Source: Deltaproteobacteria bacterium (lineage in GTDB: Bacteria; Myxococcota_A; UBA9160; UBA6930). Taken from it: a stretch of 64,000 bases of DNA. Shown in pieces: positions 31,073 through 58,373 of this stretch (its first letter is position 1; each line of letters begins with the position of its first letter). The stretch covers positions 3,420-67,419 of the forward strand of contig JAJDAP010000064.1 of assembly GCA_029261795.1 (NCBI GenBank), given 5' to 3'. The notes under the pieces were generated by a model that ran no database searches, was not told where the DNA came from, and saw only the letters and a program-made list of their open reading frames with translations. A program made the translations under genes and the position numbers.

Positions 31073-31076
31073 CCCC

Positions 31077-37099: not shown

Positions 37100-37200
37100 G
37101 TCAGCGTTACGTTTTCAGCATGGAATCGAGGGGAGCGTGCGAAGCTACGGCGAGGCAGACATCCTGGTGCGGGACAGAATCTGCGGAAAGGTCCGGCACT

Positions 37201-37430
37201 TCACCTCTCCCAGCGCGCAGTCGCACCACGCCTCGAGCTGACGCTCGAAGTGACCCTGGTCGAGACTAACGACGCCCTGCCAGGGCTCGAGGAGGCGGTG
37301 CCGTTCGCGGCCGCAGCGAGCATGCTCAAGAATCTCCTGCGACGAGCCTCCGATAGTGGCATTGGCGTCCTTCGGCCCGACTCCCAGGTCTGCCAGCTCG
37401 ACTCGCCCACTCCTGCTTCCCTTTACCTCG
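37201..37430 (-). pseudogene. Degraded copy of the triple-HTH module
   Basis: ESSWQTWESGRRTPMPLSEARRRRFL matches the 38966 and 46457 ORFs; DNA ~37325-37420 resembles ~39197-39290. Confidence 0.7.
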
Positions 37431-37939
37431 GCGAGGTACTCGGGCGGAGCTTCGCATTGCATGGGAGCTTGTCCGATTCGCCAGCGTTGGCGGCACGCTA
37501 TCCGATGCGCGGGCGTTCCGACGCAGCAGGTTACAGCGCAATAGCTTCCCTCTGTCGCGGGAAGACGCAGCTGCCTTGGCGACTCTGGGATTCAGCGGTG
37601 GATCGCCCGAAGCAGCTCACCTACTTCGAACAGAGGCTCACGTGGATCGAGGCTACGCCCACGTTTTCGAAGCCCGGCCCATCAGCGTTTTCGTTTGCTC
37701 TGCCCACGGACTACCGGTCCGCGGGGCACGATGGAGAATCACCGCGCGGCGTCCGGCCTCATGCTGAAGAAGGAAAACGATGCGGCAGCGGTCGCGATTC
37801 CGACCGTGACTACCACTACCACCAAACCTACGGTCACGATCGGGAGAGAACTGGGACCAAATGGGGTATGTCAGTGAGCGTATCGCGAGGACATCAGGGA
37901 CTTTCGTCAATAGGCAGCGAGCTACTGGTCGGTTCTGAT

Positions 37940-38611
37940 TCAGGGCTGCTCGGGTGCCGGTTTTCTGCACGCACCGACGTGGTCCTGCTGGACCTTCGCC
38001 TTGCGCCGCTCGCAATCGTTGGAGTAGGTCACTCCGTTGCAACCGCAAACCGGCCAGTATTGGGTCGTGCACTGCCCAGGTTTGTCGACGCACACTCCTT
38101 GAAGGTCGACTGCTCCACAGTATCCGGGATCGAGGTCGCACCATCTCCCGCCACGGCACGCGCGGCCGTCGATGCCGCCGCAAGCCTCTGCAGGTGCAAC
38201 ACCACGCTTGGCGACTGGAGCCGAGAGGCAGTCTGCGAGCGATACGGTCTGTACGCCCCTACCGACCCCGTACACTCGGACTCCCTCGACGTCGGCTTCG
38301 GGGAATCGCGTCCATGAATGTGATGCCTTGACTTCCGAGATGACCCACAACACGATGCCAGTCGGTCTCTTGGCCACGAGATCGTATTCCCAAATCCCGT
38401 CCGGCGGAGGCTGGACATAGACACGGCGAAGCAGCTGTACGTCAGACCAACCGCTGCTGGGGACCAGACCAGTCACATCGAGTCGGAGGTTCGGTGGGCT
38501 GCTCTTCTCTAGAGAGCATTGAACCTCGACGACATCGCGAACGTGCTCGAGCGCAGCTGCGGCGTTTGGCATGAACAACAACGTAAGCAACAAGGGTAGT
38601 ACGGTTCGCAT
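37940..38611 (-). CDS. Secreted protein with Kazal-type domain
   Basis: Signal peptide; CTTQYWPVCGCNGVTYSNDC..C. Confidence 0.8.
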   Translation of the reverse strand: MRTVLPLLLTLLFMPNAAAALEHVRDVVEVQCSLEKSSPPNLRLDVTGLVPSSGWSDVQLLRRVYVQPPPDGIWEYDLVAKRPTGIVLWVISEVKASHSWTRFPEADVEGVRVYGVGRGVQTVSLADCLSAPVAKRGVAPAEACGGIDGRACRGGRWCDLDPGYCGAVDLQGVCVDKPGQCTTQYWPVCGCNGVTYSNDCERRKAKVQQDHVGACRKPAPEQP

Positions 38612-38900
38612 AGAATTCCTTTCGTTAGTAGGCCAGCAACAACCTAGCATCTCCAGCTGTCCACGGATCACAGAAACAATGGCGAGAGGTACGCGGGGTG
38701 CAGAACTTCACGACCCCAGTCGACCCAAATGGGGTGCAATAAGATTCACTCACTTGTATCCGTATCGCCGTCTGCATAGCGTGCGATATGTCGAATAGCA
38801 GCCATAGAGTTCCAGCCGATCGATGTCGGCGTAGAGCTTGGCGAGCCGGTCGCGGACCGTGTCATCGGCGATCAGATCCGAAGGAGCTTCGCAGCCGACG

Positions 38901-38965
38901 TGACCTGACACCCAACGTAGGGCCGTTGGAAGTGAGAGATTCGTGCCCCTTGGGCGTCAGGAGCC
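38901..38965 (-). repeat. IS3-like terminal remnant
   Basis: TGACCTGACACCCAACGTAGGGCCGTTGGAAGTGAGAGATTC, similar to 15369-15410. Confidence 0.6.
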
Positions 38966-39628
38966 TCAGTGGTTCTTGCGTCGCTGCTCGTCGTGTGGGC
39001 GATCCGGGAAGCAACCTGCAATTCTCTCGTGAGCCGAGTTCGAGGGGATATTGTGTCCCAGCTCCCAAGACCGAACTGTATTCGTGTGGACGCCCAGCAG
39101 GAGACCAAGGTCTCGCTGCGAGAGACCCTTGGCGAGTCGAGCTGCTCGTAGACGCTCCCCAAAGGAATCCCCGGAATCAGGCTCAGCGGGTATTCCCAAG
39201 AACCTCCTGAGACGAGCCTCCGAAAGTGGCGTTGGCTTCCTTCGGCCCGATTCCCAAGCCTGCCAGCTAGACTCGTCCACCCCTGCTTCGTCGGCTGCCT
39301 TCTCCTGAGAGAATCCTCGCAGTTGTCGGAAACTGGCCATGTGCTCCTTGAGCGTCTCACACTCTCGCTTCGGGCCTGGGTCGTAACCGAGGTAGTCGAC
39401 CGTCCGCCCACGTAGACCGATGGGTGGCACGGTCCGGTTCTTCTCCCAGTTGAGAATCGTCCAAGGACTCACCCCTAGTTTCTTCCCGAGATCCCCGTGG
39501 GTGAGACGCTCTTCGAGCCGCTTGGCCTTGATGTGATCTCCGAAGGTCTGAGGGCCATCCGGAAAGGGACCCGGAATCGGGCACTTACGGCTGACCCGCC
39601 TCGATGGCAAGAAGGCAACGCATCCATG
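38966..39628 (-). CDS. Triple XRE-HTH module, copy A, open from the att core
   Basis: Three cro/C1-type HTH repeats; frame begins HGCVAFLPSRR at the core; no conserved ATG. Confidence 0.8.
   Translation of the reverse strand, partial: HGCVAFLPSRRVSRKCPIPGPFPDGPQTFGDHIKAKRLEERLTHGDLGKKLGVSPWTILNWEKNRTVPPIGLRGRTVDYLGYDPGPKRECETLKEHMASFRQLRGFSQEKAADEAGVDESSWQAWESGRRKPTPLSEARLRRFLGIPAEPDSGDSFGERLRAARLAKGLSQRDLGLLLGVHTNTVRSWELGHNIPSNSAHERIAGCFPDRPHDEQRRKNH
39601..39628. repeat. attR-like site 1 (not followed by comM)
   Basis: TCGATGGCAAGAAGGCAACGCATCCATG, identical to 47071-47098; identity stops right after CCATG. Confidence 0.85.
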
Positions 39629-40320
39629 AGAACCTGCGAGGTGGAAGAACTGGAAGCGGGCGGGGATCCACGCCGCTCATTGTTAGGTCGATTCGAACTC
39701 GCGCTTCGGGCAACTGAGGTGGCGATCAAGGTACGCAGTACCTCACGCGGGCCACGGCCGGGTAGTTCGAAGACGGAGTCCCATTTGGATGTTTGGCGCT
39801 AGCGACTGCTACGCAGAAAGTACCTCCGCATCGAAACTAGGTCCTCTGCGTCGAGTTGAGCGCACAGACCCAAATGCTAGGGCGCTCAATGCCCATGCGC
39901 AGGGCCGGTGGAAACCGGTTCGAGAGGCGCCGCATCGCGAGGAGTTGTCGAAGTCTCTTCGGACTGGAGCTGCCGGCTCTCCCTCGGTTGAAGTCCCTCT
40001 GATTGTGGCAGGCCCAGGTTCGCCGACTCGATCTACGCAGCGGGCCGCCGTGCCAACCACGCCTCCTGTTCTGGACGATCAACGTGATGACTACGCCCGC
40101 TCGCTCCGCCAGTGACCCGAGCTCCGAAACCCGATCCCGATCTCAGCGGTCCAGCCCAATGGTGCGCCGCAGCGCGGATGCGCGCCGCCCGCGAAAACTC
40201 CTAGCCCAAATGGGTCAGAAGCTGTGCCCGGCTAGCTCTCCGCGAATTGCGCCGATCATTGAGCTACTCCGAGGTCGGGCGCCATGTTAGGGTCACGCCA
40301 ACCGATTTGGAGGCCTGTCG

Positions 40321-43119
40321 ATGAGTCGAACTCGGATCGCCGCAGCCGTTGCTGTCATCACGCTCGTGGCAGCAGTACCCGGATATGGAAGTCCCCGATC
40401 GGAGATCGATGAATCCGATTCAGTCGTTTCGGCGATTTGGTTCGAGCCGAACCATGGGCAGGCTCCAGCATCTACCCGATTCATCGCGCGTACGGGGCAG
40501 GTCCAGTATCACTTCTCGGAGGCCGGTCCCGTGATCCTGGCCTGGGATCCGTCGACGGAAGAGTTCCGGCCGATCACCCTTGAGTTCGCAGGGGCGAACT
40601 CGCCAGCTGCTGTCAACTCCAGCGACAAGCGGGACGGCGCCAGCAACTACTACGGCTTGGGTAGTCGAGGTGGAATCCTTGGCGTGCCTCACTACGGCCG
40701 CGTGCGTTACGAGAGCCTACTCCCTGGAATCGCCGCTTCCTTCTACGGAGCCGGAGCCGACCTGGAGTACGACCTGGAGCTCGAACCGGGAGTCGATGTG
40801 AGAGCGGTCCGGCTCCGCTTCGCGGGCGCCGATGCGACGCAGCTCGTTGGCGACCATGTGGTCGTTCGAACAGGAGGGGTGGAGCTCACGCAGAAGGCGC
40901 CGGTCGTCTATCAAGTCGACAGCCATGGTATGAGGTCGCAGGTCGCCGCCGGCTATTCCCTTCGAGACGGATGGCTCTCCTTTGAGGTCGACGCCCAGGC
41001 AATCGACGAAACGAAGCGGCTCGTGATCGACCCGGTGATCGAGTTCTCTCAATATCTAGGCAGCAGCGACAAACATGACACCCCCGCGCACCCAGGACTT
41101 GAGGTGGACGGCGATGGCAACGCGTTCGTACTCGGATACACCAAATCCACCAACTACATTCCGATCACTGGAGGTTCGACCCTCGCTGGCGCGCTGGACA
41201 TCGTCCTGACGAAGGTAAGACCAGATGGCTCGATCGCGTACTCCACCTACATCGGTGGGCCGGCGGACGATGCGGGTCATGCCCTTACGACGGACTCGCT
41301 CGGGAACGCCTACCTGACCGGATTCACCAAGTCGTCCACAGGCTTCCCTCACGATTACGATCTGCGTTCTACAGCGGCGTGCACCCGGCCCGGCGGCTGC
41401 AATCCGGCTGACCTCTACATGACGAAGCTGGACCCATCGGGCGTGATCGTGTTGTCGACGCTCATGGGCGGGGCGGATCGCGAAGAGGGCCAAGGAATCG
41501 TCATCGGGCCGGGTGGAGATATCTTCCTCACCGGAATCACAACCTCGGTCGACTTGCCGACTGGCAGTCCGTCCGGAAGTCCCTACCAGGATGTGTCTTT
41601 GGCGGGGTTCACCGGCGCCGGCTTCGTCATCAGGCTATCCGCGGGCGGTGATCAGCTCGTGTACTCGACGTATCTCTCCGGCAGTGGCGTGACGGTCGGA
41701 ACAGGGATCGCCGTCGATCCAGCTGGGAACGCGTTCGTGGCTGGGCAGACATTCGCAGCTGACTTCGTCGCCGGCGTGACCGCTCCGTCACCACTTCAGG
41801 CATCGTACGGCGGAGAAGGCGACGCGTTCGTGACTGGCCTCAACGCGACGGGGTCCGCGCTCATCTTCTCGACCTTCTGGGGCGGCGCTGGCCACGACTC
41901 CGCAAGGGACGTTGTCCTCGATTCGTCGGGGAACGTTGTCGTGGTAGGAGAAACGAAGTCAGCACTGCTGCCCCAACGAGACGCGGTGAAGACGCTCACG
42001 CCGGCGGAAATCCTGCCCAATGACCGCATTCCCCAGGACGGTTGGGTCACGGTCTTCTTGCCGGACGGAACCGACTATCTTACGTCAAGCTTCATCGGGG
42101 GAGCCAAGTCGGAGTGGATCTATGCGGTCGACGCGGACGCCTCGGGCAACCTCTACCTGGGGGGACAAACCTCGTCCACGAACTTCCCCGATCCGAGTAC
42201 AAATTTTCCGGTCGTCGATCAGATTCCAGGATCCTCTGCAACCACCCAGGAGAATGCGGAAGCGTTTGCAGTCAAGCTCGGCCCCCTTGGGAAGTCGGTG
42301 GTGTACGCGACACTGATCGGCGGAAGCCTCGGAGAGATCGGGCTTGGGATCGCGTCCAATGACGCCGGCTCGACGTGGCTCTCCGGCACTACCGCATCGC
42401 CCGATTTCCCAGGTGCCGTGACGGCGTGCCAGGGGGCGTGTCAGGGTCTCTCTGACATCTTTGTCGTAAAGATCGCTGACGGCGGCGCGCCGGACATCTT
42501 TGTTGCGCCCGATCCCGTCGATTTTGGCTCCGTCGCCCTCCCGGGCTCCTCGGACCTACTCCTCACGATCTCCAACCTTGGCCCGTTGGATCTCGAGATT
42601 ACTGACATCCAGCTCAACGACTTGACCAACGCGTTCTCGATCTCAGGGGCCACGGCAGCGACGATTCCACCGGATGGCTCCATTGACATCTCTCTGACCT
42701 TCGCCCCGACCAGCTTCACTCCATTCAGCGGAATCGTGACTATCGCTAGCGACGATCCCGATGAGAGTCTGCTCTCGATCGTGTTGTTCGGGACCGGCGC
42801 CGGGTCGGAGGACCCGCCACTCGACCAGATCGCGACGATCCTCGACTTCATTGACAGCTCGGTGGTTGACGGATCGCTCCAAGGCTCCGGGCCGAACTCA
42901 AATTCCGCTGCCAACCGCTTGGCCGCGCTGATCAATCAGATCGAAGCCGCCGGGGATCTGATCTCAGCTGGGATGACAGCCGAAGGCTGCGATCAACTGG
43001 TCGATGTTCTCAACAGGACCGATGGTGTACATCCACCACCTGACTTCGTCGGGGGCGATGCTGCCACCGTGCTGTTCCTGCTGGTCGACAATCTGATTGT
43101 TCAGGAGTGCTCACCATAA
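40321..43119 (+). CDS. Secreted SBBP-type beta-propeller protein with Ig-like and helical C-terminal domains
   Basis: Signal peptide; FEPNHGQ, LVIDP, repeated YSTYxGG / DxxGNAYxTG; PDIxV..DFG..SDDPDE domain. Confidence 0.85.
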   Translation: MSRTRIAAAVAVITLVAAVPGYGSPRSEIDESDSVVSAIWFEPNHGQAPASTRFIARTGQVQYHFSEAGPVILAWDPSTEEFRPITLEFAGANSPAAVNSSDKRDGASNYYGLGSRGGILGVPHYGRVRYESLLPGIAASFYGAGADLEYDLELEPGVDVRAVRLRFAGADATQLVGDHVVVRTGGVELTQKAPVVYQVDSHGMRSQVAAGYSLRDGWLSFEVDAQAIDETKRLVIDPVIEFSQYLGSSDKHDTPAHPGLEVDGDGNAFVLGYTKSTNYIPITGGSTLAGALDIVLTKVRPDGSIAYSTYIGGPADDAGHALTTDSLGNAYLTGFTKSSTGFPHDYDLRSTAACTRPGGCNPADLYMTKLDPSGVIVLSTLMGGADREEGQGIVIGPGGDIFLTGITTSVDLPTGSPSGSPYQDVSLAGFTGAGFVIRLSAGGDQLVYSTYLSGSGVTVGTGIAVDPAGNAFVAGQTFAADFVAGVTAPSPLQASYGGEGDAFVTGLNATGSALIFSTFWGGAGHDSARDVVLDSSGNVVVVGETKSALLPQRDAVKTLTPAEILPNDRIPQDGWVTVFLPDGTDYLTSSFIGGAKSEWIYAVDADASGNLYLGGQTSSTNFPDPSTNFPVVDQIPGSSATTQENAEAFAVKLGPLGKSVVYATLIGGSLGEIGLGIASNDAGSTWLSGTTASPDFPGAVTACQGACQGLSDIFVVKIADGGAPDIFVAPDPVDFGSVALPGSSDLLLTISNLGPLDLEITDIQLNDLTNAFSISGATAATIPPDGSIDISLTFAPTSFTPFSGIVTIASDDPDESLLSIVLFGTGAGSEDPPLDQIATILDFIDSSVVDGSLQGSGPNSNSAANRLAALINQIEAAGDLISAGMTAEGCDQLVDVLNRTDGVHPPPDFVGGDAATVLFLLVDNLIVQECSP

Positions 43120-43239
43120 TCAACAGCAGCGTTCCAGTCATTGCAACTCCCTTCGCCGGTAGCGTCCCCAAGTTCGGCCACGGGCGAGACGTTAGGGAGG
43201 CCTAAGTGAAGATGACAGTCTGCTTCGCCAGACTAACGC

Positions 43240-43324
43240 TCGCTGTGCCCGAGGAGTACGCGCACCAAGCCGCTTAACCGGAGAATCTCTCATTTCGAAT
43301 GACCCTACGTTGGGGGTCAGGTCC
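43240..43324 (+). repeat. IS3-like terminal remnant, inverted relative to the 15369 copy
   Basis: PEEYAHQAA* followed by CCGGAGAATCTCTCA...GTTGGGGGTCAGG. Confidence 0.65.
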
Positions 43325-43752
43325 GTCAGTCCGCGTCGTCGCTCGGTGCACGAAGCGAGAGGTTGCAGCCAGCGCTGACTCGTGGGAACCAGAGTAGGCA
43401 GCGGTGGCGAGCGGAGGCTTTGCGATGGTCGGGTGGTTAGTTCAGGTGAGGATGGCGACGTGCTCCGCCTGGCGCTCGACGAACTCGCGGCAGAGACCGA
43501 AGGGAAGCCGCCGCAACCTCGAGGTGCTGTGGTGCTTGTCCGCCTCAAGCGGGGGTTCCTCGACCAGAGGAAAGAGGTGCCGTGGGCCAAGAGCAAGGCG
43601 GGAGGACGCGTACTTTAGTCCTAGGTGGACAGGGTCTTCGTCCCGAGGTCCACTCGAGCACCCATCGGGTGCATCCGCGGCACCGACGAACGCGAGGCGA
43701 TCCTCCCGATACGGTGTGAACTCTTTCACACTGTTCCGCAGCCCGCGGTCGT

Positions 43753-45690
43753 ATGCTGGTTGATTCGGAGGAATGGCACATGGACCTGTCGATTCGTATC
43801 TCAACGCACTTCCGTCCGCTGCAGTTGGCTGAGGGGGTCGCGCTGGCGGTGGCGCTAGCCTCGGCGGCAGTTCTCTTCGGCGAGCTCCCGGCTTCCGCGG
43901 CCCCGATCGATTTCGTGCGCGTCGTAGATACGAACACAACGATCCCAGGCACAAGCGGGACGTTCAATCTCTTCGGAGGCCCCACGATTAGCAACACCTC
44001 CTCCGATGTGATCGGCTTCGAGGGTGCGGGCTCAACGACCAATGGCGTCTACCGTTCAGATGCGGGAGTGACTACCACGATCGTGGACTCCAACGACCAG
44101 ATCCCGGGAGGAACCCACAAATTTGCCGTTCACGGAGCTGGACCGTGGATCGATGGACCGGACTCCGTTTTCGCCGGAAGGGATCGGGTGGTGGGTCCGA
44201 CCGACGCCGGAATTTTCGCTGTCACGAACGGCACACTGTCAGCGGTGGTTCTCGCGACTGACACGACGCCTGCGGGCAGCCCGTACATCGGTTTCGTGGA
44301 CCGACCCTCCCTCGATGGCGGGCTCGTCGTCTTCGGGGCGACCTCGGGAAGTCCAGGGAACCCAGATCCCGGGATCTATGGCGCGACGGCAGGGCAGCCA
44401 AACTCTGTGTTCTTGGTCGCTGATGAGGGGACCGACATTCCCGATGGTAGTGGCAACAAGTACTTGGAATTCTCGTTGCGTCCGGTCGGCGCCGACAACA
44501 CCATTGCATTCCGTGGGCTCGGTCCCATGAGTGATGGCGTCTACACCTACGACGTGCCATCGGCCGAGCTGAGTATCGTGGCCGACACGGCCACTCCGGT
44601 TCCGGACGCGTACGGGTCCGACGGAATGGACACATTCGCCGCGTTCGGACAAGCCACGACCGACGCTGGCGACGTGGTGTTCATCGCTTCGGCACCAACC
44701 GGGGGACCCGGAATCTACGCGAAGATAGACGGCACGCTCAGACTCGTGGTGGACACCAACACCAAGGTTCCGGGCGGCGTTCCAACCACAACCTTCCTCA
44801 ACCTAGACAGCGGCCTCTTCGCGATCGATGACGGCGAAGTCCTGTTCCTCGCCAACGACACCAGCGGCGGGCGGGCCGCCTACCTGTACCGAAATCGGAA
44901 GATAGCTCGGGTCCTCGGAGTGGGCGATTTCCTCGACGGCGAGTTCGTTCTCGACATGGTCGTTCGCCCTGGGGGGCTCCGGGAGTCGACGGCCGCGGTG
45001 AGGGTGACGTTCGCGAGCTCGACAGCAATCTATCTCGTCACCGTCCCAAATCCAGAACCAGATATTGTCGTGTCACCCTTCTCACTTGACTTCGGAGACG
45101 TGGAACTTCCGGGTTCGAATGCGCTCATGGTGTCGATCTCGAATGTTGGAGCGCTGGATCTCGAGGTGATGAATATCGACTTCCAGATGGGGAGTAGTGG
45201 AGCATTCGCGTCCACCTCCGTGCCCAGCCCGGTCGTGGTACTAGCGCCAGGAGCATCCGCCGACGTTGGAATCACCTTCACACCAACCACCCTTGGCGTG
45301 TTCTCTGGCACTCTAGAGATCGGCAGCGATGACCCGGACGAAAGTCTTGTCGTAGTGGATCTCGTCGGGACCGGTGTGGTGTCCGATGACCCGCCCTCAC
45401 AGCAAATCATGGACATCCTGAACTTCATCGACGATTCGGTTGCGGCAGGAACACTTGAGGGGAGCGGTCCCGGTAGTTCCGGTACGGGTCGCCTGAACGC
45501 ACTGAAGAACCAAATTGAGGCCGCGGGCGATCTCTTCGGCGATGGACTCGTCGCCGAAGGCTGTGATCAGCTTCTGGATGCGCTGGAACGCACAGACGGG
45601 GAGTTTCCACCGCCGGACTTTGTTGAGGGACATGTCGCCGCCGAGCTGGAGTTGCTGATCGAGATTCTTCTCGACCAGGAATGCAGTTGA
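43753..45690 (+). CDS. Secreted repeat (propeller-like) protein with the same C-terminal module as 40321-43119
   Basis: Signal peptide; repeated (V/I)(V/A)DTxTxIP..GIY units; shared ~200-aa tail. Confidence 0.8.
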   Translation: MLVDSEEWHMDLSIRISTHFRPLQLAEGVALAVALASAAVLFGELPASAAPIDFVRVVDTNTTIPGTSGTFNLFGGPTISNTSSDVIGFEGAGSTTNGVYRSDAGVTTTIVDSNDQIPGGTHKFAVHGAGPWIDGPDSVFAGRDRVVGPTDAGIFAVTNGTLSAVVLATDTTPAGSPYIGFVDRPSLDGGLVVFGATSGSPGNPDPGIYGATAGQPNSVFLVADEGTDIPDGSGNKYLEFSLRPVGADNTIAFRGLGPMSDGVYTYDVPSAELSIVADTATPVPDAYGSDGMDTFAAFGQATTDAGDVVFIASAPTGGPGIYAKIDGTLRLVVDTNTKVPGGVPTTTFLNLDSGLFAIDDGEVLFLANDTSGGRAAYLYRNRKIARVLGVGDFLDGEFVLDMVVRPGGLRESTAAVRVTFASSTAIYLVTVPNPEPDIVVSPFSLDFGDVELPGSNALMVSISNVGALDLEVMNIDFQMGSSGAFASTSVPSPVVVLAPGASADVGITFTPTTLGVFSGTLEIGSDDPDESLVVVDLVGTGVVSDDPPSQQIMDILNFIDDSVAAGTLEGSGPGSSGTGRLNALKNQIEAAGDLFGDGLVAEGCDQLLDALERTDGEFPPPDFVEGHVAAELELLIEILLDQECS

Positions 45691-46456
45691 GACCGTCGTC
45701 CCCAGCCCCGCATGGCCATATTTCACTTTCAGCCAATCAGACCGGTCCACCCGTCGTCGCCGCAACGCGAAAGAGTTCCGAGACTTCACGTGCTGGAAAG
45801 CCGTAGCCGAGGGGCTCGCAAGGGGTCTCGGCAAGCTTGAGTGTGGTCTCTAGCGATGTTAGTCCAGAAACATTCGAAGCCGCCTCAAACCAACGCCTCT
45901 GAGTGTCTAGGAAACTGGGGGAAGTCCACTGAGGGTCTGCCCCTGTCCACGACAGCAAGGAAGTCATCCTCAGCTGGCTTCCGCGGACGCTGGATCCGGC
46001 GATATCCAGCTCCCGTCAGGAAACGCGTTCAAGCTTCCAACGGACCGGATCGCCTCTCTCGGATTTGGGGATTCAAAGACCTGCCTTCCCCTCCAGGTGT
46101 CGGACTGTCTTGCGACCATCGGTCGAGTCGTAGTGACTGATTGCAAGAACCCCGCATCCCACCGGGCTGCGCAGTTTCAACCCGTGCTGCAGAGCTTGTT
46201 CGAGTGTCGGAGTGGAGACGGTTTCCCGTTTGCCATCGGGCCGCTCTCGTGGCAGCCGCACGCGTTCGGAGCCCTATCAGGTTTGGGGTTCCCGCCCGGG
46301 AGGTGATCTCTGGAACTGCGGGTCGGAATAGCAGTAGGTGAGAAGTACCTCGGCTGCGTGAGGTCTCATGCAGCCGTCGGACCATTGCCCGGCCCGACGG
46401 CGGACACGATCACGGTCTGGCGAGTACGGGATACGTAGGTACGGTCGGAGTCTCCA

Positions 46457-47098: not shown

Positions 47099-47110
47099 CA
47101 AGTGCGGCTT
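47071..47110. repeat. attR site 2 (element arm + CCATG + comM arm)
   Basis: TGGCAAGAAGGCAACGCAT-CCATG-CAAGTGCGGC. Confidence 0.9.
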
Positions 47111-47570: not shown

Positions 47571-47807
47571 GCATGTTCCAGCCATTCGATCCACGCCGCC
47601 GGCACGCTTTCACCCTCTCAGAACTCCGAATCGGGTCCGAGTCGAAGACGATCCGTGCCGGCAAGCCGTTCCTTCCATCGCGAGGTCCGCTGCAGACGAT
47701 CCGAAGTCTGTCCGGCAGCAACGTGCACTGGCCGTCTCGCTCCGCGTCGTGATTCCACCTCTGGATGTCCAGCGCTCGCGGCTGACGAGCGCTGTCCAGA
47801 GTGGACC

Positions 47808-49991: not shown

Positions 49992-52885
49992 CGTGACAGA
50001 CCGCGAACGACAGAGCAGCCGCGTCCCTCGAGTCTCCGGCGAAGACGACCCAGTTCGATCTCGAGTTCGTCGGCCTTCGTCCCGTTTACGGAACCCGACC
50101 GAGCCACCTGTTCGATCTCCTCGCAAAGCGCTCCGACCCGCTTCGCGCCGATCTCGAAGCTGCTCGATTTGAGCCGGTGGGCGGCGCGCGCCACCTCCTC
50201 GGCGTTTCCGCATGCGACTGCGGCGCAGATGACCTCCCCCAACGGGAACGATGTCTCCAGATAGAGGGAGACCACGCGCTCGACGAGGCCCGAGTCGACG
50301 GCACCAGGGATCTCTTCAAGCTGCTCCAAGACGGACTCATCGAGAACCTCTTTGGCCTCGACTCGCAGCTCGACATCGCGAGATTCGGGCGGCGCCCCTC
50401 CCGCGTCCGAGCGGGTGTCTTCGGGTACCCAGCGAGTGACCATGGCCGCGAGACCCGAGCGTGAGAACGGCTTCGTCAGGAAGTCGTCCATGCCCGCCTC
50501 CATACAGCGGTCCCGATCTTCTTGCATCGCGTGCGCGGTCAACGCGACGATCGGTGTGCGTGGTGCAGGCGTCGACCCGTCTTGTCCGCGCTCCCAGCGG
50601 CGAATGCACTCCGTGGCGCTGAAGCCGTCCAACTCCGGCATCTGGCAGTCCATGAAGACGAGATCGTAGAGGGAGTTGCACACGGCCTCGAACGCGAGGC
50701 GTCCATCGCTGACGACAGTCACGATGCAGCCGAGGTCTTCGAGCATCGCGGAGGCAACCTCCTGGTTCACCTCGTTGTCCTCGGCGAGGAGCACTCGCCG
50801 GGCGAAGGTTGGGTGTTCTCGCGGCTCAGAATCATCCGCGCGCTCGGGTCGGTTCGCATCGGGCGCGAGTTCGACACGACCCTGGACTACGCTCAAGAGT
50901 GCCCGGCGCAGGTCCCTTCTCCGGATGGGCTTGGTCAGATGTGCAGCGACGTTGAGATCGGCCAGCTCTGGGCCGGACAATCCGACGCCCACTGAGGTCA
51001 ATAGAACCAGCCTGGTGTCGGCCAGGGCCGCGTCGTCGCGAATCGCCTCGGCCGCTTCCAATCCGGTCATTCCAGGCATCATCATGTCGAGCAGCACGAT
51101 CTCGTAGGGCTCTCCCGCCCCCGCAGCGAGCCGCAGCTCGTCGAGGGCGTTCCAGCCGTTCGACGCCATGCCAACGCGGCAACCCCAGCCGGCGAGGTGT
51201 TGGCACAGGATTCGCCGATTGGTTGTGTTGTCGTCGACGATCAGCGCGCGAAGATCCTCGAGCGCCGGGCTCACGTCCGGCAGGTCGTCGACCGCGACGA
51301 CCTGGGCCGGCACCGTGAACCAGAAGTGGGAACCGCCCGTCGGCCGGTTCTGCAAGCCGATTTCACCAGCCATGAGGTCGACGAGCTGTTGGCAGATTGC
51401 CAGCCCCAAGCCCGTACCGCCGAAGCGCCTCGCCATGGACTCGTCGACTTGGGTGAAGGCGCCGAAGATCCGCGATCGATCGGCGTCCGGGACCCCGACG
51501 CCGGTGTCCAATACGTCGAAGCGAATCGTAGTCGGCGATCCCCAGCTCTCGTCATCAGGGCCATCGGCACGAACCTCGATGACCACCTCGCCCGCGTCAG
51601 TGAACTTGAGGGCATTGCCAACGAGATTGGTGAGGATCTGGCGAAGTCTGAGTGGATCGACTCGGACGCACGGGGGGACCGAGTCGTCGATGGCACAAAC
51701 CATCTCGATCCTCTTGCGTCCTGCTGGTTCCGCTAGCAGGTCGACCACGTCCTCGACTAGCTCTCGAACGTCGGTGTCCGCGTGCTCGAGCGTCAGCCTG
51801 CCCGCCTCTGCCTTGGAGAAGTCCAGGATCTCGTTGATTACCGCGAGTAGACTCTCTGCAGATGTCTGAATCGTGCGCGCGAACTTCCTCTGGCTCGGGC
51901 CGAGTTCGGTCTCGAGAAGCAGCTCGGTCATCCCGAGGACGCCGTTCATGGGTGTCCGGATCTCGTGACTCATGTTCGCGAGGAATTGGGACTTCGCCTG
52001 GTTCGCGGCCTCCGCCTGCTCTGCCAGCGCAACTGCCTTTTCGGTGGCACTCTGGAGATCGAGGGTCCGCTCCTCCACCTTCATCTCGAGGCTTTGGCGA
52101 TAGCTCTCCACCTCGGTCCGGTAGCCACGCAGGTGCTCGAGCATTCGGTTGAAGGCGCGCGAAAGCTCACCGATCTCGGCGTCACCCGAGATCTTCAGGT
52201 CCTGGTCGAAGCGACCTTGAGCGATGTCGTGAGTCACTCGTGCGAGTTCTTGGATCGGCGCGGCGATGCGCCGGGTCAAGAGCACCGTCAGGGCGGTTCC
52301 GAACAGCACGAGCACCGTGGTAACAAGCAGCGTCGAGAGCTGGTACTCACGCGTTTCCACTCGCATCCGCTCGTGGCTGAGACCGAGCTGCACGAAACCA
52401 ACCAGCTCCTTTGTCCCAGGCGAGTCGGGGAACAGGACATCGGGCCGCTGGTGCACCTGACTGACGACGGGCATCAGAATCGACGTGTAGTTCTTTCGGC
52501 TGGTGGGACTCTGGAAGTCCTCATACCGCACTTCGGATGGAGGGGCGCCCACGTGGGTGGGGACCTTCACATCGCGCGCCATCAGCTCGCTCGTCAACAT
52601 GCGCATCTCATCGTCGAAGATGGCGACGAACGCGATGTCCTCATCCGCCTCCAGACTCTGCGCGATCCCACGGAGGATCGTCGGGTCCGCCGTGTAGATC
52701 CCGTACTCGGAGTTCTGGGCCAGCATCGCGGCCGTGGTCGTGCCCTTTCGAACTAGCTTGTCGTAGTTGTTGATGCGGCCCTGGACCGTGACGTAGGTCC
52801 CGATCCCGAGCGATGTGGTGACGATGAGCGCGATCGTGAGTGCGTTGAACTTGCTAGACAAGCCCATCCGAAGTCGGAACGTCAT
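49988..52885 (-). CDS. Hybrid sensor histidine kinase (HAMP, HisKA, HATPase, 2 REC, Hpt)
   Basis: [50 protein letters not shown]. Confidence 0.95.
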
Positions 52886-52898
52886 TGTTGACCTCCCA

Positions 52899-53846
52899 TC
52901 ATCGGAAAACCATGTCGGCGTCGCGCACGAGATCCGGGGGAAGGTCGATCTTCAGATGCTCGGCAGTCCGAAGATTGAGCGCGTAGAGCACCTTGCGAGG
53001 AGTGGCAGGGGGGATCGAAGTGGCGCGTCTGCCGCCGAGGACCTGTGTGGCCATCTCTCCGCACTGTGCGCCCAGGTCTTCGTAGTCGCGATCGAGCGCG
53101 TAGAGGGCGCCGGCCTTGACCCACGAAGCCGACAGTCCAGAGAACGGAATCCGATGGCGGAAGGAGAAGAGGAGGATTGCCTGCGCAGTCTGCCTCGACA
53201 GCACCATCTGATCGGTCACTCCCCAGAGCAGATCGGCCTCTCGGGACAGATCGTCTAGCGCGTCGGGTAGATCCTGGGGCCGATGCACCTCGCGAGCGAT
53301 GAGCTCCAGCCCGAGCCGCTTGGCAATCTTCCGCGCAGCGCGGATCTCGTCGTCATTCTCACCCGGGTTGTAGACGACACCGATCGTGCGGCTCTCGGGC
53401 GAGAACTTGCGGATCCACTCGAGCTGGGTTTCCAACGGGAAGTCGAGCAGAACGCCAGTCGCGTTCTCCGCCCCCCGTAGTTCGTGGGAGTCGACCACCA
53501 TGCACGCGATAATGGGTGCGTCACCTGGCGACTCCAGGGCCGCGCGGGTAGCCACCGAGCCAATCGTGAGAATCGGATGGCCCCTCTGTTGGCGAGCGAG
53601 CCTCAACGCGTCCATCGCTTCGTCAGGCTCCAGTTGGATGGAGTGCACCTCGATGGGCCTGGCCAGACCCGACTCCCGAAGGGAGCGCTGGATCCCGGAA
53701 ACCACGGCTTGGTACGGCCCGTCCTGTCGGCTTGTCACCACGACAACGGGAGGGTCCGGATCTCCGTACGCTCCGCTCGACAGCGCGGCCGGCGTGAACA
53801 TCAGTACTGCGATCAAGGCAGCTGTCAGATGGCGGGTTCTGTTCAA
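52899..53846 (-). CDS. ABC-type substrate-binding-like periplasmic protein
   Basis: Signal peptide, IGVVYNP, VKAGAL, LNLRTA. Confidence 0.8.
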
Positions 53847-53865
53847 GACACGTGCTCTGGTTGGC

Positions 53866-55956
53866 TCAGAAAGCGTATTTGATCTTCAGCCAGTAGCTAC
53901 GGCCGTCCTGCCGGATCCGGTCCTGGACATGCTCACCAGATCCTGGGTCCCAGAAGACTTCGCCGAAGAGGTTCCTGACGTTTGCAGAGAGCTCCAGGCC
54001 CTTGAGCAGGTTGGTACTCAGCAGTGTTAGGTTGGTCGTGGAGTAGCCGCCTGTCGTGTCTCGAGCCAACGTCGTTCGCTCACTCACATAGGCAATCTCG
54101 AGACCCGCCGTTAGGCGATCCTCGATGATGGGAACGCTGGCTGTCAGATTCGCGAGGTGTGTGGGCGAGTTCGTCAAGCCCTTGCCCGTGCGTCGATCCA
54201 TCGCCTCCTGGATCGCGTAGCTGAATCTTCCGGAGACTCCGTAGATTTCCGGTCCTCCGAACTCGAGCTGGAGTTCGAGACCCTTGGCCTCGGTATTTCC
54301 CCTGTTCTGGAACACCAGCAGTCCGTCCGAGGGATCCGCCTCCTGACTGATCAGATCGTCGATCCGGTAGAAGTAGACGGTCGCGGTCGCTCGGAGATGC
54401 TTGGCGAGGGCGTGCTCCACAACCAGCTCGTAGGTCGCAATGTTCTCCGGATCGAGATCGGGGTTCGCTTTGAACCCGGTGCCTACGTAGAAGCGCTCAT
54501 AGGCGTTGGGAGCGCGGAACGCCTCGCCGTAGAGCGCCTTCACCGTGGTCTGATCGAAATGCCGGATCAGGGCCACCCGCGGACTGACCGTGCCGCCGAA
54601 CGACTCGTATTGGTCGTAGCGAACACCCGCGTTGAGAATCAGGTTCTCCGAGATCTGGAACTGATCCTGAGTGAAGAGTGCCCAGCTCCTGTGGGATCCC
54701 TTCTCGTCCAAGTAGACGATCTCCGGATCGGTGTCGGCGTTCCAGAGGTCCTGGCGGAAGTTGTCGCGGAACTCCAGGCCGGCCGTGACGTTGTGCCGAT
54801 CGAAGGCCCTCGACTCCACCATCAGCTCCGTACCCCACCACTCTCCCGTCGACCTGTCCTGATTCAGGACGAGGTCCGGGGTGGCCGTGCCGGAGACATC
54901 GTAGAGGTAGTCGCCTTGGTAGTAGAACCGGTCGTAATAGATCCGGCCCTCGAAGTCGGTCTCCTGCGAGATCTCGGTCTCGTACTTCAGCGAGAGATAG
55001 CCGTGCTCATCGGTCGAGCGCGTCTCCGTCGTCGGGAAGAAGGTGCCGTACGAGGCGGTGGGGATACCCTTCTCGCGGGACACGAAGCCGCCCTGAAGAG
55101 TGAACTCGCGGAACGAAAGCTTCCCAAAGAAGCTCGGGTACTTGTCGTCATCCGCGTCACGGGTGACCCCGTTGCCCGTCTGCGGGTCGTCGAACTCCCT
55201 GAAGTAGAGACGCCCGCGCCCTTCGCTGTCGAAGTAGGAGCCGGAGAGGATCAGCTCGGCTCCGTTCGAGAACTTGTCGCCATAGGTCCCCCGAACTTTT
55301 CGTGAGGACCAGCTTCCGAGCTCACTCGAGATCTCGAGGCCCCGAAGGTCGCGACCTCGCTTCGTGACGACGTTGATGACTCCGAAGAAAGCGTTCGTTC
55401 CATAGAGTGAGGAACTCGGTCCTCGGATCACCTCGATGCGATCGATCAGGTCGACGTCGACGAGGGATTCGGTACCCAGGCCCGCCTGATCGTAGAGGTT
55501 GTCGTTCAGCCGGTGGCCGTCGACGAGAAGGAGTACGCGTGTGTTGAAGTCGCCCGGGCGGTTGAACCCGCGAACACCGAGGTAGTTGTAGTTGCGATCG
55601 TAGGTGACGAAGAACCCGGGAACGCTCTGCAAGACTTCCGCGACCGTCCGGTAGCCATGCACCTTGATGTCGTTCGACGTGACGAGCGTGACGAAGGAGG
55701 GGGCCTCCGTCACCTTCTGCTCGAACTTCGACGCCCCGTAGACTGACGGTATCTCCTGGAAGATGATGGCTTCTTCTCCCGCAGGAGCAGGCTCGATATC
55801 AGCATAGGCGGCCGTGCCAAGACCGACAGCGAGCAGCTGTGAGCCGACGATCAGACCCACCGCGAAGTCACGTCGAACCGCGCGCACTGTTTCGGACCAG
55901 TGGATACCGTGGACGATGTTAGGTTGTCTGCCTTGCATGGTGACCGCCTTGTGCAC
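53866..55956 (-). CDS. TonB-dependent receptor
   Basis: Plug motif IDRIEVIRGPSSSLYG..GVIN; C-terminal Phe. Confidence 0.92.
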   Translation of the reverse strand: MHKAVTMQGRQPNIVHGIHWSETVRAVRRDFAVGLIVGSQLLAVGLGTAAYADIEPAPAGEEAIIFQEIPSVYGASKFEQKVTEAPSFVTLVTSNDIKVHGYRTVAEVLQSVPGFFVTYDRNYNYLGVRGFNRPGDFNTRVLLLVDGHRLNDNLYDQAGLGTESLVDVDLIDRIEVIRGPSSSLYGTNAFFGVINVVTKRGRDLRGLEISSELGSWSSRKVRGTYGDKFSNGAELILSGSYFDSEGRGRLYFREFDDPQTGNGVTRDADDDKYPSFFGKLSFREFTLQGGFVSREKGIPTASYGTFFPTTETRSTDEHGYLSLKYETEISQETDFEGRIYYDRFYYQGDYLYDVSGTATPDLVLNQDRSTGEWWGTELMVESRAFDRHNVTAGLEFRDNFRQDLWNADTDPEIVYLDEKGSHRSWALFTQDQFQISENLILNAGVRYDQYESFGGTVSPRVALIRHFDQTTVKALYGEAFRAPNAYERFYVGTGFKANPDLDPENIATYELVVEHALAKHLRATATVYFYRIDDLISQEADPSDGLLVFQNRGNTEAKGLELQLEFGGPEIYGVSGRFSYAIQEAMDRRTGKGLTNSPTHLANLTASVPIIEDRLTAGLEIAYVSERTTLARDTTGGYSTTNLTLLSTNLLKGLELSANVRNLFGEVFWDPGSGEHVQDRIRQDGRSYWLKIKYAF

Positions 55957-56092
55957 GCGGGTGCCCTGGACTCAGTGAGCTGGGTCACAGACACTCCGCC
56001 TTGGTCTTATCGTGCGGAGCGGGGTCGACCTTGAGAGGCCCCGGGCTTGGGCGCGCAACCACCAGGCAACTCGGCGAAGAAGTCGCGGAAGT

Positions 56093-56458
56093 TCAACCTG
56101 AAGTTCGAGTGATCAGCCAGCCGAGACAGACCATCACATTGGCGGCGACGACCTGATCCAGAAGCTGCCATTGGAGGAACCTGCCCTCGAGGACCGCGAC
56201 TCCCACGATCGTGACGGTGAACCACACAAGGGCTTGGATCTCTGCGAACACGATACCTGCCTCAGCTAGGTACCGGACCGCACCGAAGTAGAGACCTATC
56301 CCGACGACGAAGCTCCCGGTCGCGCGCGCGGCTTCGATCCAGACCACCTTCCCTTCGCGCCACATGCCGGCTGCGTACGAGAATGCCAATGCGTCAAAGA
56401 TCCCCGATGCGACCGTCAGCACCACGATGAAGCCCGCGAGTTGCAGGGTCGGCGGCAA
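56093..56458 (-). CDS. Small four-TM membrane protein (SMR/DMT-like)
   Basis: Four hydrophobic segments in the last ~120 aa of ORF 56093-56842; start uncertain. Confidence 0.55.
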   Translation of the reverse strand: MPPTLQLAGFIVVLTVASGIFDALAFSYAAGMWREGKVVWIEAARATGSFVVGIGLYFGAVRYLAEAGIVFAEIQALVWFTVTIVGVAVLEGRFLQWQLLDQVVAANVMVCLGWLITRTSG

Positions 56459-56460
56459 GA

Positions 56461-57246
56461 TCAGCGACCGTCCGTGGATTCGCTTTGCTTTGTCGCGACG
56501 GCGAATATCAGGCCCGAGTAGTCGCGCGTCGGTCGATCCGCCTGGACCGAACGAATCTCGATGGTCTTCCTCTTGAAGCCCTCTTCGTCGAGAACCTCGA
56601 AGAGATCCTCTTCTGAGATGTCGACGGCTGGGAACCACCTGGATCCCACCGAGTAACTGGTGGCCCCGCTGAGTGCGGACATGATGAGTGTCCCTCCAGG
56701 CTTCAGGAGCGAAACGATATTGGCGAAGAAAGACCGCCACTCGCTTCGGTCCGAGGTTGCCGATTCGGCGCAGAAATTCGTCACGAGGACGTCGTAGGCG
56801 CTTTCCGGCCCGTCGATCGAGTGGAGCCGGGAGGCGTCGCAACGCAGGAGTTGGGTCACCTTCGAACGGATCTCATCCTCGCGCCGGGCAACGGCCGCAT
56901 CGGAGCAGGGCGGTCCGGTCTCGAGTTCGAGTACCTCCCGGACGAACGCGGTCCAGTCGAATGCAGCAGCGTCGCGCGCGAGCCAACGCTCGACCTCTTT
57001 CAAGTTCGACGCGAGGAAATCGCAGAAGTGGATCTCGTCGACCTTGGCGACCGCCGAGATCAGCGGGTAGATGGTGGGCCCGCCACCAAAGTCGAGCATC
57101 CGCCCGCCCGCGGGCAGGTCCCGGTACGAGTCGAACAGGAATCGAAGGAGAGCCCGGTTCTCAGCACCAACGTCTCCGTAGTACTCGTTCAGATAGGCTG
57201 CGGGATCGAACTGATCCCAATCGAGAAGGGGGACCTCTGCGGCCAT
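56461..57246 (-). CDS. NNMT/PNMT/TEMT-family SAM methyltransferase
   Basis: FDPAAYLNEYY, LDFGGGPTIY, AFDW, FCAESA, LLKPGG, Y.VG..F. Confidence 0.85.
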   Translation of the reverse strand: MAAEVPLLDWDQFDPAAYLNEYYGDVGAENRALLRFLFDSYRDLPAGGRMLDFGGGPTIYPLISAVAKVDEIHFCDFLASNLKEVERWLARDAAAFDWTAFVREVLELETGPPCSDAAVARREDEIRSKVTQLLRCDASRLHSIDGPESAYDVLVTNFCAESATSDRSEWRSFFANIVSLLKPGGTLIMSALSGATSYSVGSRWFPAVDISEEDLFEVLDEEGFKRKTIEIRSVQADRPTRDYSGLIFAVATKQSESTDGR

Positions 57247-57247
57247 C

Positions 57248-57721
57248 TCAGTCGTCCCAACCCTGGCTCGAGTAGATCGCGATGGCCAGCGCACAGACCG
57301 GCTGACCCTCACACGTAACACCCGTGACTTCGCGCTCGTTCTTGCCGTAGTCGTAGACTCTCGATTCCTTCATCGATTCGAGGGTCGTGTCGATTGCGTT
57401 CTCGACGGCCCGACGGCTCGACCCGTGCAACTCGACGAACAGTCCTCGACCGGTCTCGCTCTCCTGCGTCCACCCCAGCCCGGCCCAAGCCTCTTCACCC
57501 ACGCAAGTAGCTCCCTCTCTCGCCATCACCACGTAGAGCCGGTGCCCATATTCGGCGGGAGGCGTGCAGAACCGCGCCCGCTCCAGCTTGCCACCGGGTG
57601 GAATAACCGAGGAGAGCTGAATCAAGTTGTAGTTCTCGACTCCGGCGTTCTGCAGGGCAGCGTCGAAGGCCCCAAGCGGAGTAGGCCCGGTACCGGTTGC
57701 CGAGACGATACGAATCCGCAT
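57248..57721 (-). CDS. Pyruvoyl-dependent arginine decarboxylase
   Basis: AFDAAL..AGVENYNLIQLSSVIP (Ser-Ser self-cleavage motif). Confidence 0.85.
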   Translation of the reverse strand: MRIRIVSATGTGPTPLGAFDAALQNAGVENYNLIQLSSVIPPGGKLERARFCTPPAEYGHRLYVVMAREGATCVGEEAWAGLGWTQESETGRGLFVELHGSSRRAVENAIDTTLESMKESRVYDYGKNEREVTGVTCEGQPVCALAIAIYSSQGWDD

Positions 57722-58051
57722 TCAGTCCTTCCATGCTCGCGCGGTCGCCTTTTGTGGGGCGGAGATGCGGCGTTATGACTCGTATCGGTGCCATCCACCG
57801 TGATCTTGAGCACGAGCGCATCTCTGACCGAGCAGCCAATGTGGTGCGGCCGGTCGTCGAACTTTGCCTGTCTGCTGGGAGCTGCTCTCATCTATGCGAG
57901 AACATCCTCGAGATCCGACTCCCAGCCGCACCAGCTGTGTGTTCGAATCGTGGCGGAATCGGTTCGGTCATCGACCGCGCTCGCTGAGTCGTCGGGCGAA
58001 CGTACGGCACACGGTTACAACGCGGGCAGCGATAGCGGAGCGGTTGCCTAG

Positions 58052-58361
58052 CTATTGCTGGCGCTTGGCGAGCTTCCCGCAAGACTCAAGTCCCATCAAA
58101 GGTCTCTCACCTCCGATGGCAATGAAGCTGTTCCCCACGGAACTCCTTGGAGTCATTGGGGAAACTTGGCACGCCAGGAGGGACGGAATCGTCCAAGGAC
58201 TCAACCCCGGTTTCTTCCCGAGATCCCCGTGGTTGAGGCGCTCTTCGAGCCGCTTGACTTTGATGTGATCGCCGAACGTCTGAGGGCCATTCGGAAAGGG
58301 ACCGGGAATCAAGCACTTACGGCTGACCCGTCTCGATGGCAAGAAGGCAAACGCACCCATG
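58052..58361 (-). pseudogene. Truncated HTH module, copy C
   Basis: AFLPSRRVSRKCLIPGPFPNGPQTFGDHIK.. then similarity is lost after SPWTI. Confidence 0.8.
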
Positions 58362-58373
58362 CAAGTGCGGCTT
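58333..58373. repeat. attR site 3 (1-bp insertion in the element arm)
   Basis: TGGCAAGAAGGCAAACGCAC-CCATG-CAAGTGCGGC. Confidence 0.85.

Follow-up and report, generated by a model that had tools for sequence, protein, structure and literature searches.

Organization of the interrupted comM locus

We examined a 64,000-nucleotide stretch of a Deltaproteobacteria bacterium genome (GTDB Myxococcota_A, UBA9160, UBA6930; assembly GCA_029261795.1, contig JAJDAP010000064.1, positions 3,420 to 67,419 of the forward strand), hereafter the window, in which the gene comM is interrupted by a large insertion. The insertion carries a gene for a large serine recombinase (LSR), named int, whose reading frame runs across the attachment (att) site, and several copies of a module that joins a helix-turn-helix (HTH) open reading frame (ORF), hereafter the tail, to one half of an att site. 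The window is part of a 70.9-kb contig in a metagenome-assembled genome (MAG) of 139 contigs. The window is GC-rich, with values of about 0.67 in its flanks and of 0.54-0.65 from about 5 to about 58 kb; no tRNA was found in the window, and no Rfam family within 36.5-59.5 kb. The features on which the analysis turns are as follows, in window coordinates.

3774-4819, plus strand: comM 5' part, native allele; 348 codons plus TG; Pfam ChlI and Mg_chelatase
4724-6349, minus strand: large serine recombinase (int); 541 codons; Pfam Resolvase, Recombinase and weak Zn_ribbon_recom
4790-4840, no strand: attL; comM-side (B) half-site, TG 4818-4819, 7-nt spacer, P arm 4827-4840
37145-37462, minus strand: fourth HTH tail relic, middle HTH only, no att; D2 repeat 86%; match at about 37270-37428
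38966-39628, minus strand: HTH tail a; 220 codons, 3 XRE HTH (Pfam); open from the core, in the int frame
39606-39663, no strand: internal site 1; P' arm 39606-39619, TG 39627-39628, 35-nt flank X
46457-47098, minus strand: HTH tail b; 213 codons, 3 XRE HTH (Pfam); in frame with int
47076-47125, no strand: attR2; intact P' arm, TG 47097-47098, true comM 3' half-site
47099-47570, plus strand: comM 3' end copy A; Pfam Mg_chelatase_C; in frame with comM 5', perfect core
58173-58361, minus strand: putatively dead attR3 and HTH tail c relic; P' arm 58338-58351 with 1 mismatch, TG 58360-58361
58362-58845, plus strand: comM 3' end copy B; followed in native synteny by a small ORF and topoisomerase VI genes

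The insertion and its two comM 3' ends

On the 5' side, similarity to comM ends at ...AACCCATG, position 4819, and the gene is split at TG 4818-4819, within conserved NP/C codons (the slash marks the cut) and with flanks that rebuild an intact ORF. This 5' part shows 80% amino acid identity to comM of a genome of the same genus (G001) and is single-copy in the assembly, which holds two comM 3' parts, copies A and B. A preliminary description of this DNA, made from its letters alone, had omitted the second comM 3' end that follows 47098 (47099-47570).

Among 32 relatives, 28 gave a comM 3' match, typically inside an open frame of about 500-600 amino acids. The gene order in G001 is VWA, M28 peptidase, comM, a small ORF and DNA topoisomerase VI (topo VI) B, the latter two directly after comM. 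The same flanking genes, VWA-(M28)-comM, occur in G014, a sister species of G005 (a genome from the same family but a different genus); there comM is intact and about 6 kb of other ORFs stand between it and the small ORF plus topo VI B. Since relatives carry an intact comM followed by the topo VI genes, all of 4820-58361 (53.5 kb) is inserted DNA.

Over a tract that starts about 58 nt ahead of the core and ends 141 nt past it, copies A and B are near-identical, with five differences; beyond this tract they fall abruptly to about 65-70% nucleotide identity. Their protein products are 70% identical overall and about 57% identical outside the first 47 residues, and the divergence of the distal part is at the level of comM genes from different genera. 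Both are 55-62% identical to the comM of relatives, a similarity that does not say which copy is native. The GC content at third codon positions (GC3) of the divergent part is 0.755 in copy A and 0.877 in copy B. On synteny and GC3 we favour copy B as the probable native comM 3' end; copy A looks foreign, a comM 3' end within the insertion. With its centre at the att site, the near-identical tract (47041-47239 versus 58304-58502; P' arm, core and 141 nt of comM) appears to mark a gene conversion or crossover.

Attachment sites, int and the HTH tails

The int gene has 510 element-encoded codons (6349-4820), and its last 31 read through into antisense comM. Its product contains a Resolvase domain (PF00239, E 2.9e-31, residues 17-155, with the motif RVSTEDQ in the translation) and a Recombinase domain (PF07508, E 2.6e-21); PF13408 reaches only 21.7 bits, below its 25.3-bit cut-off. 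The sequence matches PDB chains of the TP901-1, SPbeta and phiC31 integrases, and the whole 139-contig assembly encodes one Int of this family.

As is typical for LSRs, the att sites are short and consist of imperfect inverted half-sites around a 2-bp crossover. They share the geometry arm-7 nt-TG-7 nt-arm, with the crossover TG at 4818-4819, 39627-39628, 47097-47098 and 58360-58361; cleavage is predicted at this TG, and in G005 the junctions share only TG with that genome's own comM. The 14-nt P' arm, GGCAAGAAGGCAAC, is exact at 39606 and 47076 and has one mismatch at 58338, while its inverted partner, the P arm GTTGCCTTGTTGCC, occurs in the island only at 4827. At up to two mismatches five arm matches were observed, a number reached in 0 of 100 shuffles; further two-mismatch matches at 61357 and 60059, one per scan, lie outside the island and were taken as chance.

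The modules are related by two direct repeats. D1 (188 nt, 39441-39628) is 83% identical to 46911-47098 and 82% to 58173-58360, and D2 (37314-37419) is 86% identical to 39184-39289 and 67% to 46654-46759. When the module copies are aligned, similarity halts right after CCATG at 39628, 47098 and 58361. Repeats, ORFs and P' arms together bear out the HTH and att units that the preliminary description had placed at 38966-39628, 46457-47098 and, in decayed form, 58052-58361. Its att-less relic at about 37201-37430 was likewise found, at about 37270-37428, as a middle HTH with one stop (57% to tail residues 111-163 by tblastn). Its statement that a single attL and integrase are visible holds for this family, with one Int and one P arm, but not for LSRs at large, as an unrelated second LSR lies at 19773-21329.

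The frames of int and the tails meet at the core: 6349-4820+1 = 1530 = 3x510, and 39628-38968 = 660 = 3x220. Because each of the two long HTH ORFs stays open from the core-adjacent base and keeps the int frame, an excised circle would encode Int with a 220- or 213-residue tail. The att core thus lies inside the int ORF, and the protein encoded by the integrated form is not that of the free form.

Tails a and b are 61% identical at the amino acid level, with 0.30 nonsynonymous (dN) and 1.38 synonymous (dS) substitutions per site, values that indicate different element lineages under purifying selection, not local duplicates. Tail c (ORF 58052-58360) is decayed and keeps about 60 tail codons; read from the core, it reaches a stop after 14 codons and is frameshifted relative to int by a 1-nt insertion. 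Its sequence is a mosaic: the distal part is a-like, and the proximal part is like b and copy A, as are the first 141 nt of comM, which points to gene conversion or crossover among modules.

A 45-nt repeat (89% identical copies at 15366-15410 and 38898-38942, with an internal hairpin CCCAAC..GTTGGG) stands right after the stop of tail a and between the GajB gene and IS66. This is perhaps a small mobile repeat, or a terminator common to both places.

Fused homologues of Int

A search for Int homologues returned 5427 of 8000 scored candidates at E<=1e-3. HTH Pfam domains were present in 4 of the 120 best homologues, with lengths of 644-669 amino acids, and most others end soon after the core or continue into antisense comM. 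In one of the fused proteins, P0091, the part up to the core-encoded HG shows 59% identity to Int over 518 residues, and the part from the same HG on shows 44% identity to tail a over 128 residues. The idea, raised in the preliminary description, that int would gain an HTH tail in the circle is therefore in keeping both with the reading frames and with natural fused homologues that switch at the core-encoded HG.

These fused forms came from the Int homologue search, not from a word-index search with the tail, in which none of 6574 candidates was a longer protein holding the tail (weak evidence). Plasmid, phage and viral collections held no close relative of the fused Int (less than 28% identity or none). 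In 18 of 28 stand-alone tail homologues inspected in public data, the ORF opens with unrelated read-in sequence, after which the arm-encoded motif VAFLP comes near the start.

Several further proteins deserve mention. In the Int homologue P0063 (61% identical), the ORF runs from arm-encoded GNKATH straight into the sense comM 3' end (..CPCGW..), which suggests that some lineages occupy comM in reverse orientation; these would need the crossover dinucleotide to be flipped relative to the arms. Public proteins of up to 4162 amino acids are made of many tandem XRE-type HTH units (P0132, P0137, P0149, P0156 and others), and three distant LSRs carry 3-6 C-terminal HTH units (P0169, P0171 and P0194).

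Site usability and flank X

The three right-hand sites differ in their condition. Excision between attL and 47098 would rebuild a 505-codon comM, and the 42.3-kb segment 4820-47098 looks like the current mobile element: it has an intact int, two perfect arms and an in-frame tail, and its excision would restore comM. At 58361, a 1-nt insertion in the P' arm gives an 8-nt instead of a 7-nt spacer, and with this extra base and its truncated, frameshifted tail the site appears to be a dead scar. Site 39628 may be usable today.

The equivalence of ends implied in the preliminary description does not stand, given the spoiled arm at 58361 with its tail stopping at 14 codons, and the lack of a comM 3' flank at 39628. 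Its proposal of alternative ends retains a historical part, in that the foreign comM 3' end inside the island suggests that more than one right end has been used. The circles that it predicted, of about 35, 42 and 54 kb, agree with the coordinates (34.8, 42.3 and 53.5 kb), but no excision junction was seen. In DNA pattern scans of metagenomes and genomes, junctions of the P' arm with comM 3' occurred in 8 of 14 metagenome matches and 1 of 3 genome matches; these scans gave no attP, only attR-type junctions or chance matches.

The 35-nt flank X that follows 39628 is not random as judged by its sequence. Its offsets 19-35 from the crossover match the inverted comM 5'-side half-site (PARFQ codons) in register, and against a position weight matrix (PWM) of 15 inverted comM 5' arms it falls in the top 0.06% of window 35-mers. 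Of three orphan sites in G005, those on contigs C53 and C481 fall in the top 0.13% and 0.016% on the same PWM, and neither flank X nor any of the three is like the comM 3' arm. The likeness of flank X to a B arm is confined to the distal 17 nt; comM 5' together with the comM 3' end of copy A would be a full attB. The region 39629-40320 is unique in the genome.

Other identities for flank X were considered and set aside. As a comM 3' (B') half-site it takes PWM ranks of only 21-99%. Nor does it look like what an inverted integration would leave of a decaying comM 5' gene, as no ComM similarity extends past 35 nt; by reasoning, inverted integration would also place the crossover at the neighbouring CA and shift the register by 2 nt.

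Tail modules in other genomes and in public runs

A hidden Markov model (HMM) of the tail was searched against 401 genomes sampled from the phylum, with eight candidates scored per genome. G005 contains one true attR next to comM 3' and topo VI and four further tail fragments, mostly at contig ends, together with a decayed int adjoining comM 5' and an extra comM 3' fragment (contigs C286, C503, C53, C481, C390, C82 and C172; loci L033, L034, L064, L011, L012, L065 and L063). Its assembly is broken at the tail modules, and it appears to be a second multi-module case of the same pattern. Genome G349 holds an ordinary attR.

To check the locus against public runs we used their assembled k=31 contigs. 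The region is present in four runs of one biofilm study, the probable source, and partly in one sediment run of another study. Runs X1 and X2 each hold a single 31.7-kb contig over 38700-47059, which spans 39628 and whose length implies a start at about 15.3 kb, and another contig corresponding to 47210-58321. Depth in these runs is equal over all parts (about 32 and 19), and the contigs are interrupted only at a 210-bp near-identical stretch (47030-47239 / 58293-58502), which forms a two-in, two-out node; the 210-nt repeat contig has a depth of 1.35-1.7x, an uninformative value.

In run X4, contigs cover 47210-58160, and a 4592-nt contig matches 58355-58502, after which come 4444 nt that resemble nothing in 38700-58699. 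The final matched bases of this contig, ACCCATG, are as expected from comM 5' (...AACCCATG), a hint of an empty or otherwise occupied core in the same habitat. Run X5, the sediment metagenome, covers 47806-57827 at about 96% identity. Because its contigs leave into unlike sequence at both ends, the signalling, TonB-receptor and methyltransferase block occurs in another genomic context as well. The uncovered 38700-46703 in X4 and the missing flanks of comM 3' copy A and tail c in X5 were not counted as absence.

A model of island growth and its alternatives

We favour, as a moderately probable account, a composite island in comM built by accretion of the kind known from staphylococcal cassette chromosome (SCC) elements, through comM-specific LSRs whose int gene lies across attP, and we infer the following order of events. 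The crossover TG would fall in the linker between a 510-codon recombinase core and a C-terminal tail of three XRE HTHs. In each integration by attP x attB, the core would stay at the comM 5' junction and a promoter-less module of tail ORF, P' half-site and TG would be left at the far end. An element leaving via a proximal right end would strand the DNA beyond that end, and the stranded unit would start with a B-type half-site, such as the captured comM 3' end at 47099 or the mimic of the comM 5' arm at 39629. Joined to comM 5', the stranded half-site would make attB again, where the next element could land and push older units downstream.

Accretion of this kind would explain the single int beside comM 5', a newest-to-oldest order of units, the junctions of P' arm, TG and B-type flank, and the foreign comM 3' end travelling inside the island, the last of which needs a past excision through a distal right end in a previous host. 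It had also been the proposal of the preliminary description that the locus grows by gaining cargo, HTH and att units, and our results support it. Alternative right ends were probably used in the past; present-day alternative excision is hypothetical.

What the tail would do is more conjectural. By analogy with the integrase IntP of the Myxococcus phage Mx8, our guess is that it is an integration-state switch of Int activity or expression. Fused to Int, the tail might add a further module for DNA binding or autoregulation, and losing it would then alter how Int behaves.

A number of observations weigh against the account that we favour. Canonical LSRs are limited to attP x attB recombination and, when a directionality factor is present, to attL x attR, and no such factor was identified in the island. 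Neither an attP nor an empty-attB junction was found among the contigs of the public runs examined. The tail family is rare, occurring in 4 of the 401 sampled genomes, of which two have several copies. The proximal 18 nt of flank X are unlike comM arms, the orphan sites on contig C503 of G005 and in genome G241 are without the X motif, and the idea of a B-type half-site rests on three related sites. The placement of 47240-58292 hangs on the assembler's phasing of five differences in a MAG. No promoter-like (sigma-70-like) site was found upstream of tails a or b, which are perhaps silent when integrated, and the only start codon ahead of the first HTH in the tail ORFs is a TTG inside the arm; given these features, the tail would be expected to act only in its fused, free form.

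A bolder version of accretion, which we consider rather unlikely, is a working array in which Int pairs attL with more than one right end and swaps its own HTH tail, and in which recombinase-less units are satellites. Such satellites would start with a B-type half-site and end with a tail and P' arm, and could be left, picked up or moved in trans. If this were true, comM would hold a growing, exchangeable stack, and the tail would be a built-in record and regulator of integration state.

The same anatomy might have arisen by nested integration into a pseudo-attB of an older element, followed by homologous recombination between the two direct repeats of the attL-int module that deleted the older front, so that one int and a series of distal ends remain and the sites, save attL and attR2, are functionless scars. 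We think this unlikely. It accords with the single int, with the diverged tails and with similarity that stops exactly at TG in every module, as site-specific events predict, and LSRs are known to use pseudo-attB sites (PMC5937489). Yet it requires an extra deletion for every layer, and it leaves unexplained both the 35-nt sequence in comM-5'-arm register that is shared by three orphan flanks in two genera and the complete in-frame comM 3' end that opens the distal unit. At the other extreme stands an active, integron-like array from which Int regularly excises with any right end, acquiring a new HTH tail each time. Tails a and b, both with perfect P' arms, are intact, in frame and different at 39% of residues, the foreign comM 3' end implies past excision via a distal end, and SCC composites excise with alternative ends (PMC7029739). 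We nevertheless regard regular excision of this sort as quite improbable, given the spoiled arm and the frameshifted 14-codon tail at 58361 and the lack of any alternative-circle junction in the public-run contigs. The integron comparison made in the preliminary description also fails, as we found no integron hallmark, neither IntI nor attC nor a common promoter, and the units are multigene blocks of mixed orientation.

Fewer real units would be needed if strain variants or a separate molecule had been threaded through the 210-bp repeat during assembly. The 139-contig MAG, the breaks of k=31 contigs at both repeat copies and the position of G005 tail modules at contig ends would all suit such an artefact, which is very unlikely in our judgement: each of two runs has an independent contig that spans the 39628 junction and the whole of 15.3-47.06 kb, a single contig carries 47210-58321, all parts have equal depth, and the five differences between repeat copies permit phasing by ordinary reads. 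Re-threading would also preserve junction sequences, so that at least three modules are real. As for the view that the HTH ORFs are ordinary paralogous XRE regulators whose shared 5' ends stem from gene duplication, XRE HTHs are ubiquitous, and at E<=1e-3 the tail query matches 4615 representative proteins, a large number of which are multi-HTH. The shared sequence is, on the other hand, an inverted copy of the int-side arm that ends at the comM-cutting TG, contiguous Int-tail ORFs exist, and the ORFs have neither a start codon of their own (save that in the arm) nor a promoter upstream of the first HTH. We regard this view as largely refuted and extremely improbable.

Cargo of the island

Cargo was assigned with Pfam on 54 ORFs and with PADLOC for defence systems.

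6819-7924: IS3; front-element cargo or backbone (6819-36621)
11714-15155: Gabija GajA/GajB, complete pair; GajA E 1.6e-145, GajB E 2.2e-92
15586-17916: IS66; front element
19773-21329: second, unrelated LSR; 29% identity to the comM LSR
21318-23795: LmuB-like SMC, 825 amino acids; adjoins the second LSR
25940-28228: ribonucleotide reductase large subunit, C-terminal TSCPD domain; island cargo
28969-34004: HerA/T4CP-like ATPases; front element
35473-36621: DNA methylase; front element
37940-38671, minus strand: Kazal-domain secreted protein (Pfam Kazal_1/2)
40321-45690, plus strand: two large secreted proteins (DUF7948, SBBP propeller and Ig-like; Ig-like) (Pfam)
47808-57721, minus strand: distal-unit cargo; GGDEF-EAL response regulator, hybrid histidine kinase, ABC substrate-binding protein (Pfam)
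47808-57721, minus strand: distal-unit cargo, further genes; TonB-dependent receptor, NNMT-like methyltransferase, pyruvoyl arginine decarboxylase (Pfam)

Pfam agrees with the cargo blocks first described (Kazal protein; propeller proteins; signalling and decarboxylase genes) and adds Ig-like domains and a methyltransferase. The signalling and decarboxylase block is not contiguous in any of the 32 relatives. A 394-amino-acid ORF of unassigned function lies near the second LSR and the LmuB-like SMC, and the segment 19773-25707 could represent a Lamassu-like defence module or, alternatively, a nested element. The cargo of this comM island thus includes defence systems, signalling and metabolic operons.

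Comparison with known systems

Serine integrases are prized for genome engineering as simple systems of one protein, two short sites and a separate direction factor. If the reading that we favour is true, integration that cuts int and removes a DNA-binding tail would be a new, self-contained link of a recombinase's activity or expression to its integration state. The stacked tails would be datable scars that make the history of a hotspot readable, and the stack would suggest how islands grow and exchange cargo in comM, the commonest LSR target gene.

Integrons resemble this locus in that units gather next to one recombinase. They differ in their tyrosine recombinase IntI, attI, folded single-strand attC sites, mostly single promoter-less genes and the promoter Pc; among the 54 ORFs scanned here we found no recombinase of the phage-integrase type, and the units are bounded by LSR half-sites. 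Composite islands of the SCC type are the better analogue.

SCC islands at rlmH/orfX (with CcrAB or CcrC; SCCmec together with ACME (arginine catabolic mobile element) or COMER (copper and mercury resistance element), and pseudo-SCC) are likewise LSR-driven tandem units in one target gene. As here, they have repeated att cores as bounds, many recombinase-less units, and new units next to the target gene, and SCCmec alone or SCCmec with ACME can excise as circles (PMC7029739). We found the corresponding arrangement of tandem units, repeated cores and fewer recombinases at comM, with three modules of P' arm and TG and one int of the family. The differences are that SCC enters the 3' end of rlmH without destroying it, whereas comM is split in the middle of its ORF; that the SCC recombinase gene does not span att, whereas each unit here holds a detached piece of the recombinase gene; and that a regenerated landing site would here depend on the B-type half-site of an older unit.

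Tandem LSR islands have also been described at Dehalococcoides ssrA (DsiB, CcrB-like), where cis-mobilisation of module-less units by accretion was proposed (PMC3146451). Both systems place multiple repeat-bounded islands in tandem downstream of one target, with the integrase beside attL. In Dehalococcoides, in contrast, the target tmRNA stays intact, the repeat is a 20-bp fragment of the target 3' end, and most units keep their own integrase.

Insertion of LSR elements into comM or Mg-chelatase genes is on record. For one such gene family, the share of predicted site-specific LSRs that target it is 12.4% (preprint 10.1101/2021.11.05.467528), and phage WO uses sr1WO to enter the Mg chelatase gene of Wolbachia (PMC9203015). 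Elements of this kind, aimed at comM/yifB, use the same gene and the same NP/C codon position, but the reports on them describe single insertions and, in their accessible text, make no mention of an int gene across attP, of HTH tails or of stacking.

Integrase genes that are altered by their own integration are familiar among tyrosine recombinases. Mx8 IntP has attP in its own gene, and the new 3' end alters the properties of the enzyme (PMC6070905), while in integrases of the Sulfolobus spindle-shaped virus (SSV) type, found in archaeal viruses and plasmids, the gene is split in two on integration; self-disrupting recombinases are described as exclusive to archaea in the same review (PMC8371274). 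The comM element resembles both in having attP within the integrase ORF, so that integration changes the protein. As those are tyrosine recombinases and this is a serine recombinase, the likeness is one of working and not of membership. In the SSV type, moreover, the catalytic part is separated and the enzyme inactivated, whereas here the catalytic and core DNA-binding domains stay whole and only the HTH tail is lost. If the present reading is true, it would extend the splitting of int beyond the tyrosine enzymes, for which alone it is known in the literature searched. A literature search, which covered neither subscription papers nor supplements, turned up no account of a serine integrase whose gene spans attP, nor of comM arrays marked by tails. 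What distinguishes this locus is the combination of an SCC-like composite island with a serine integrase gene that splits itself.

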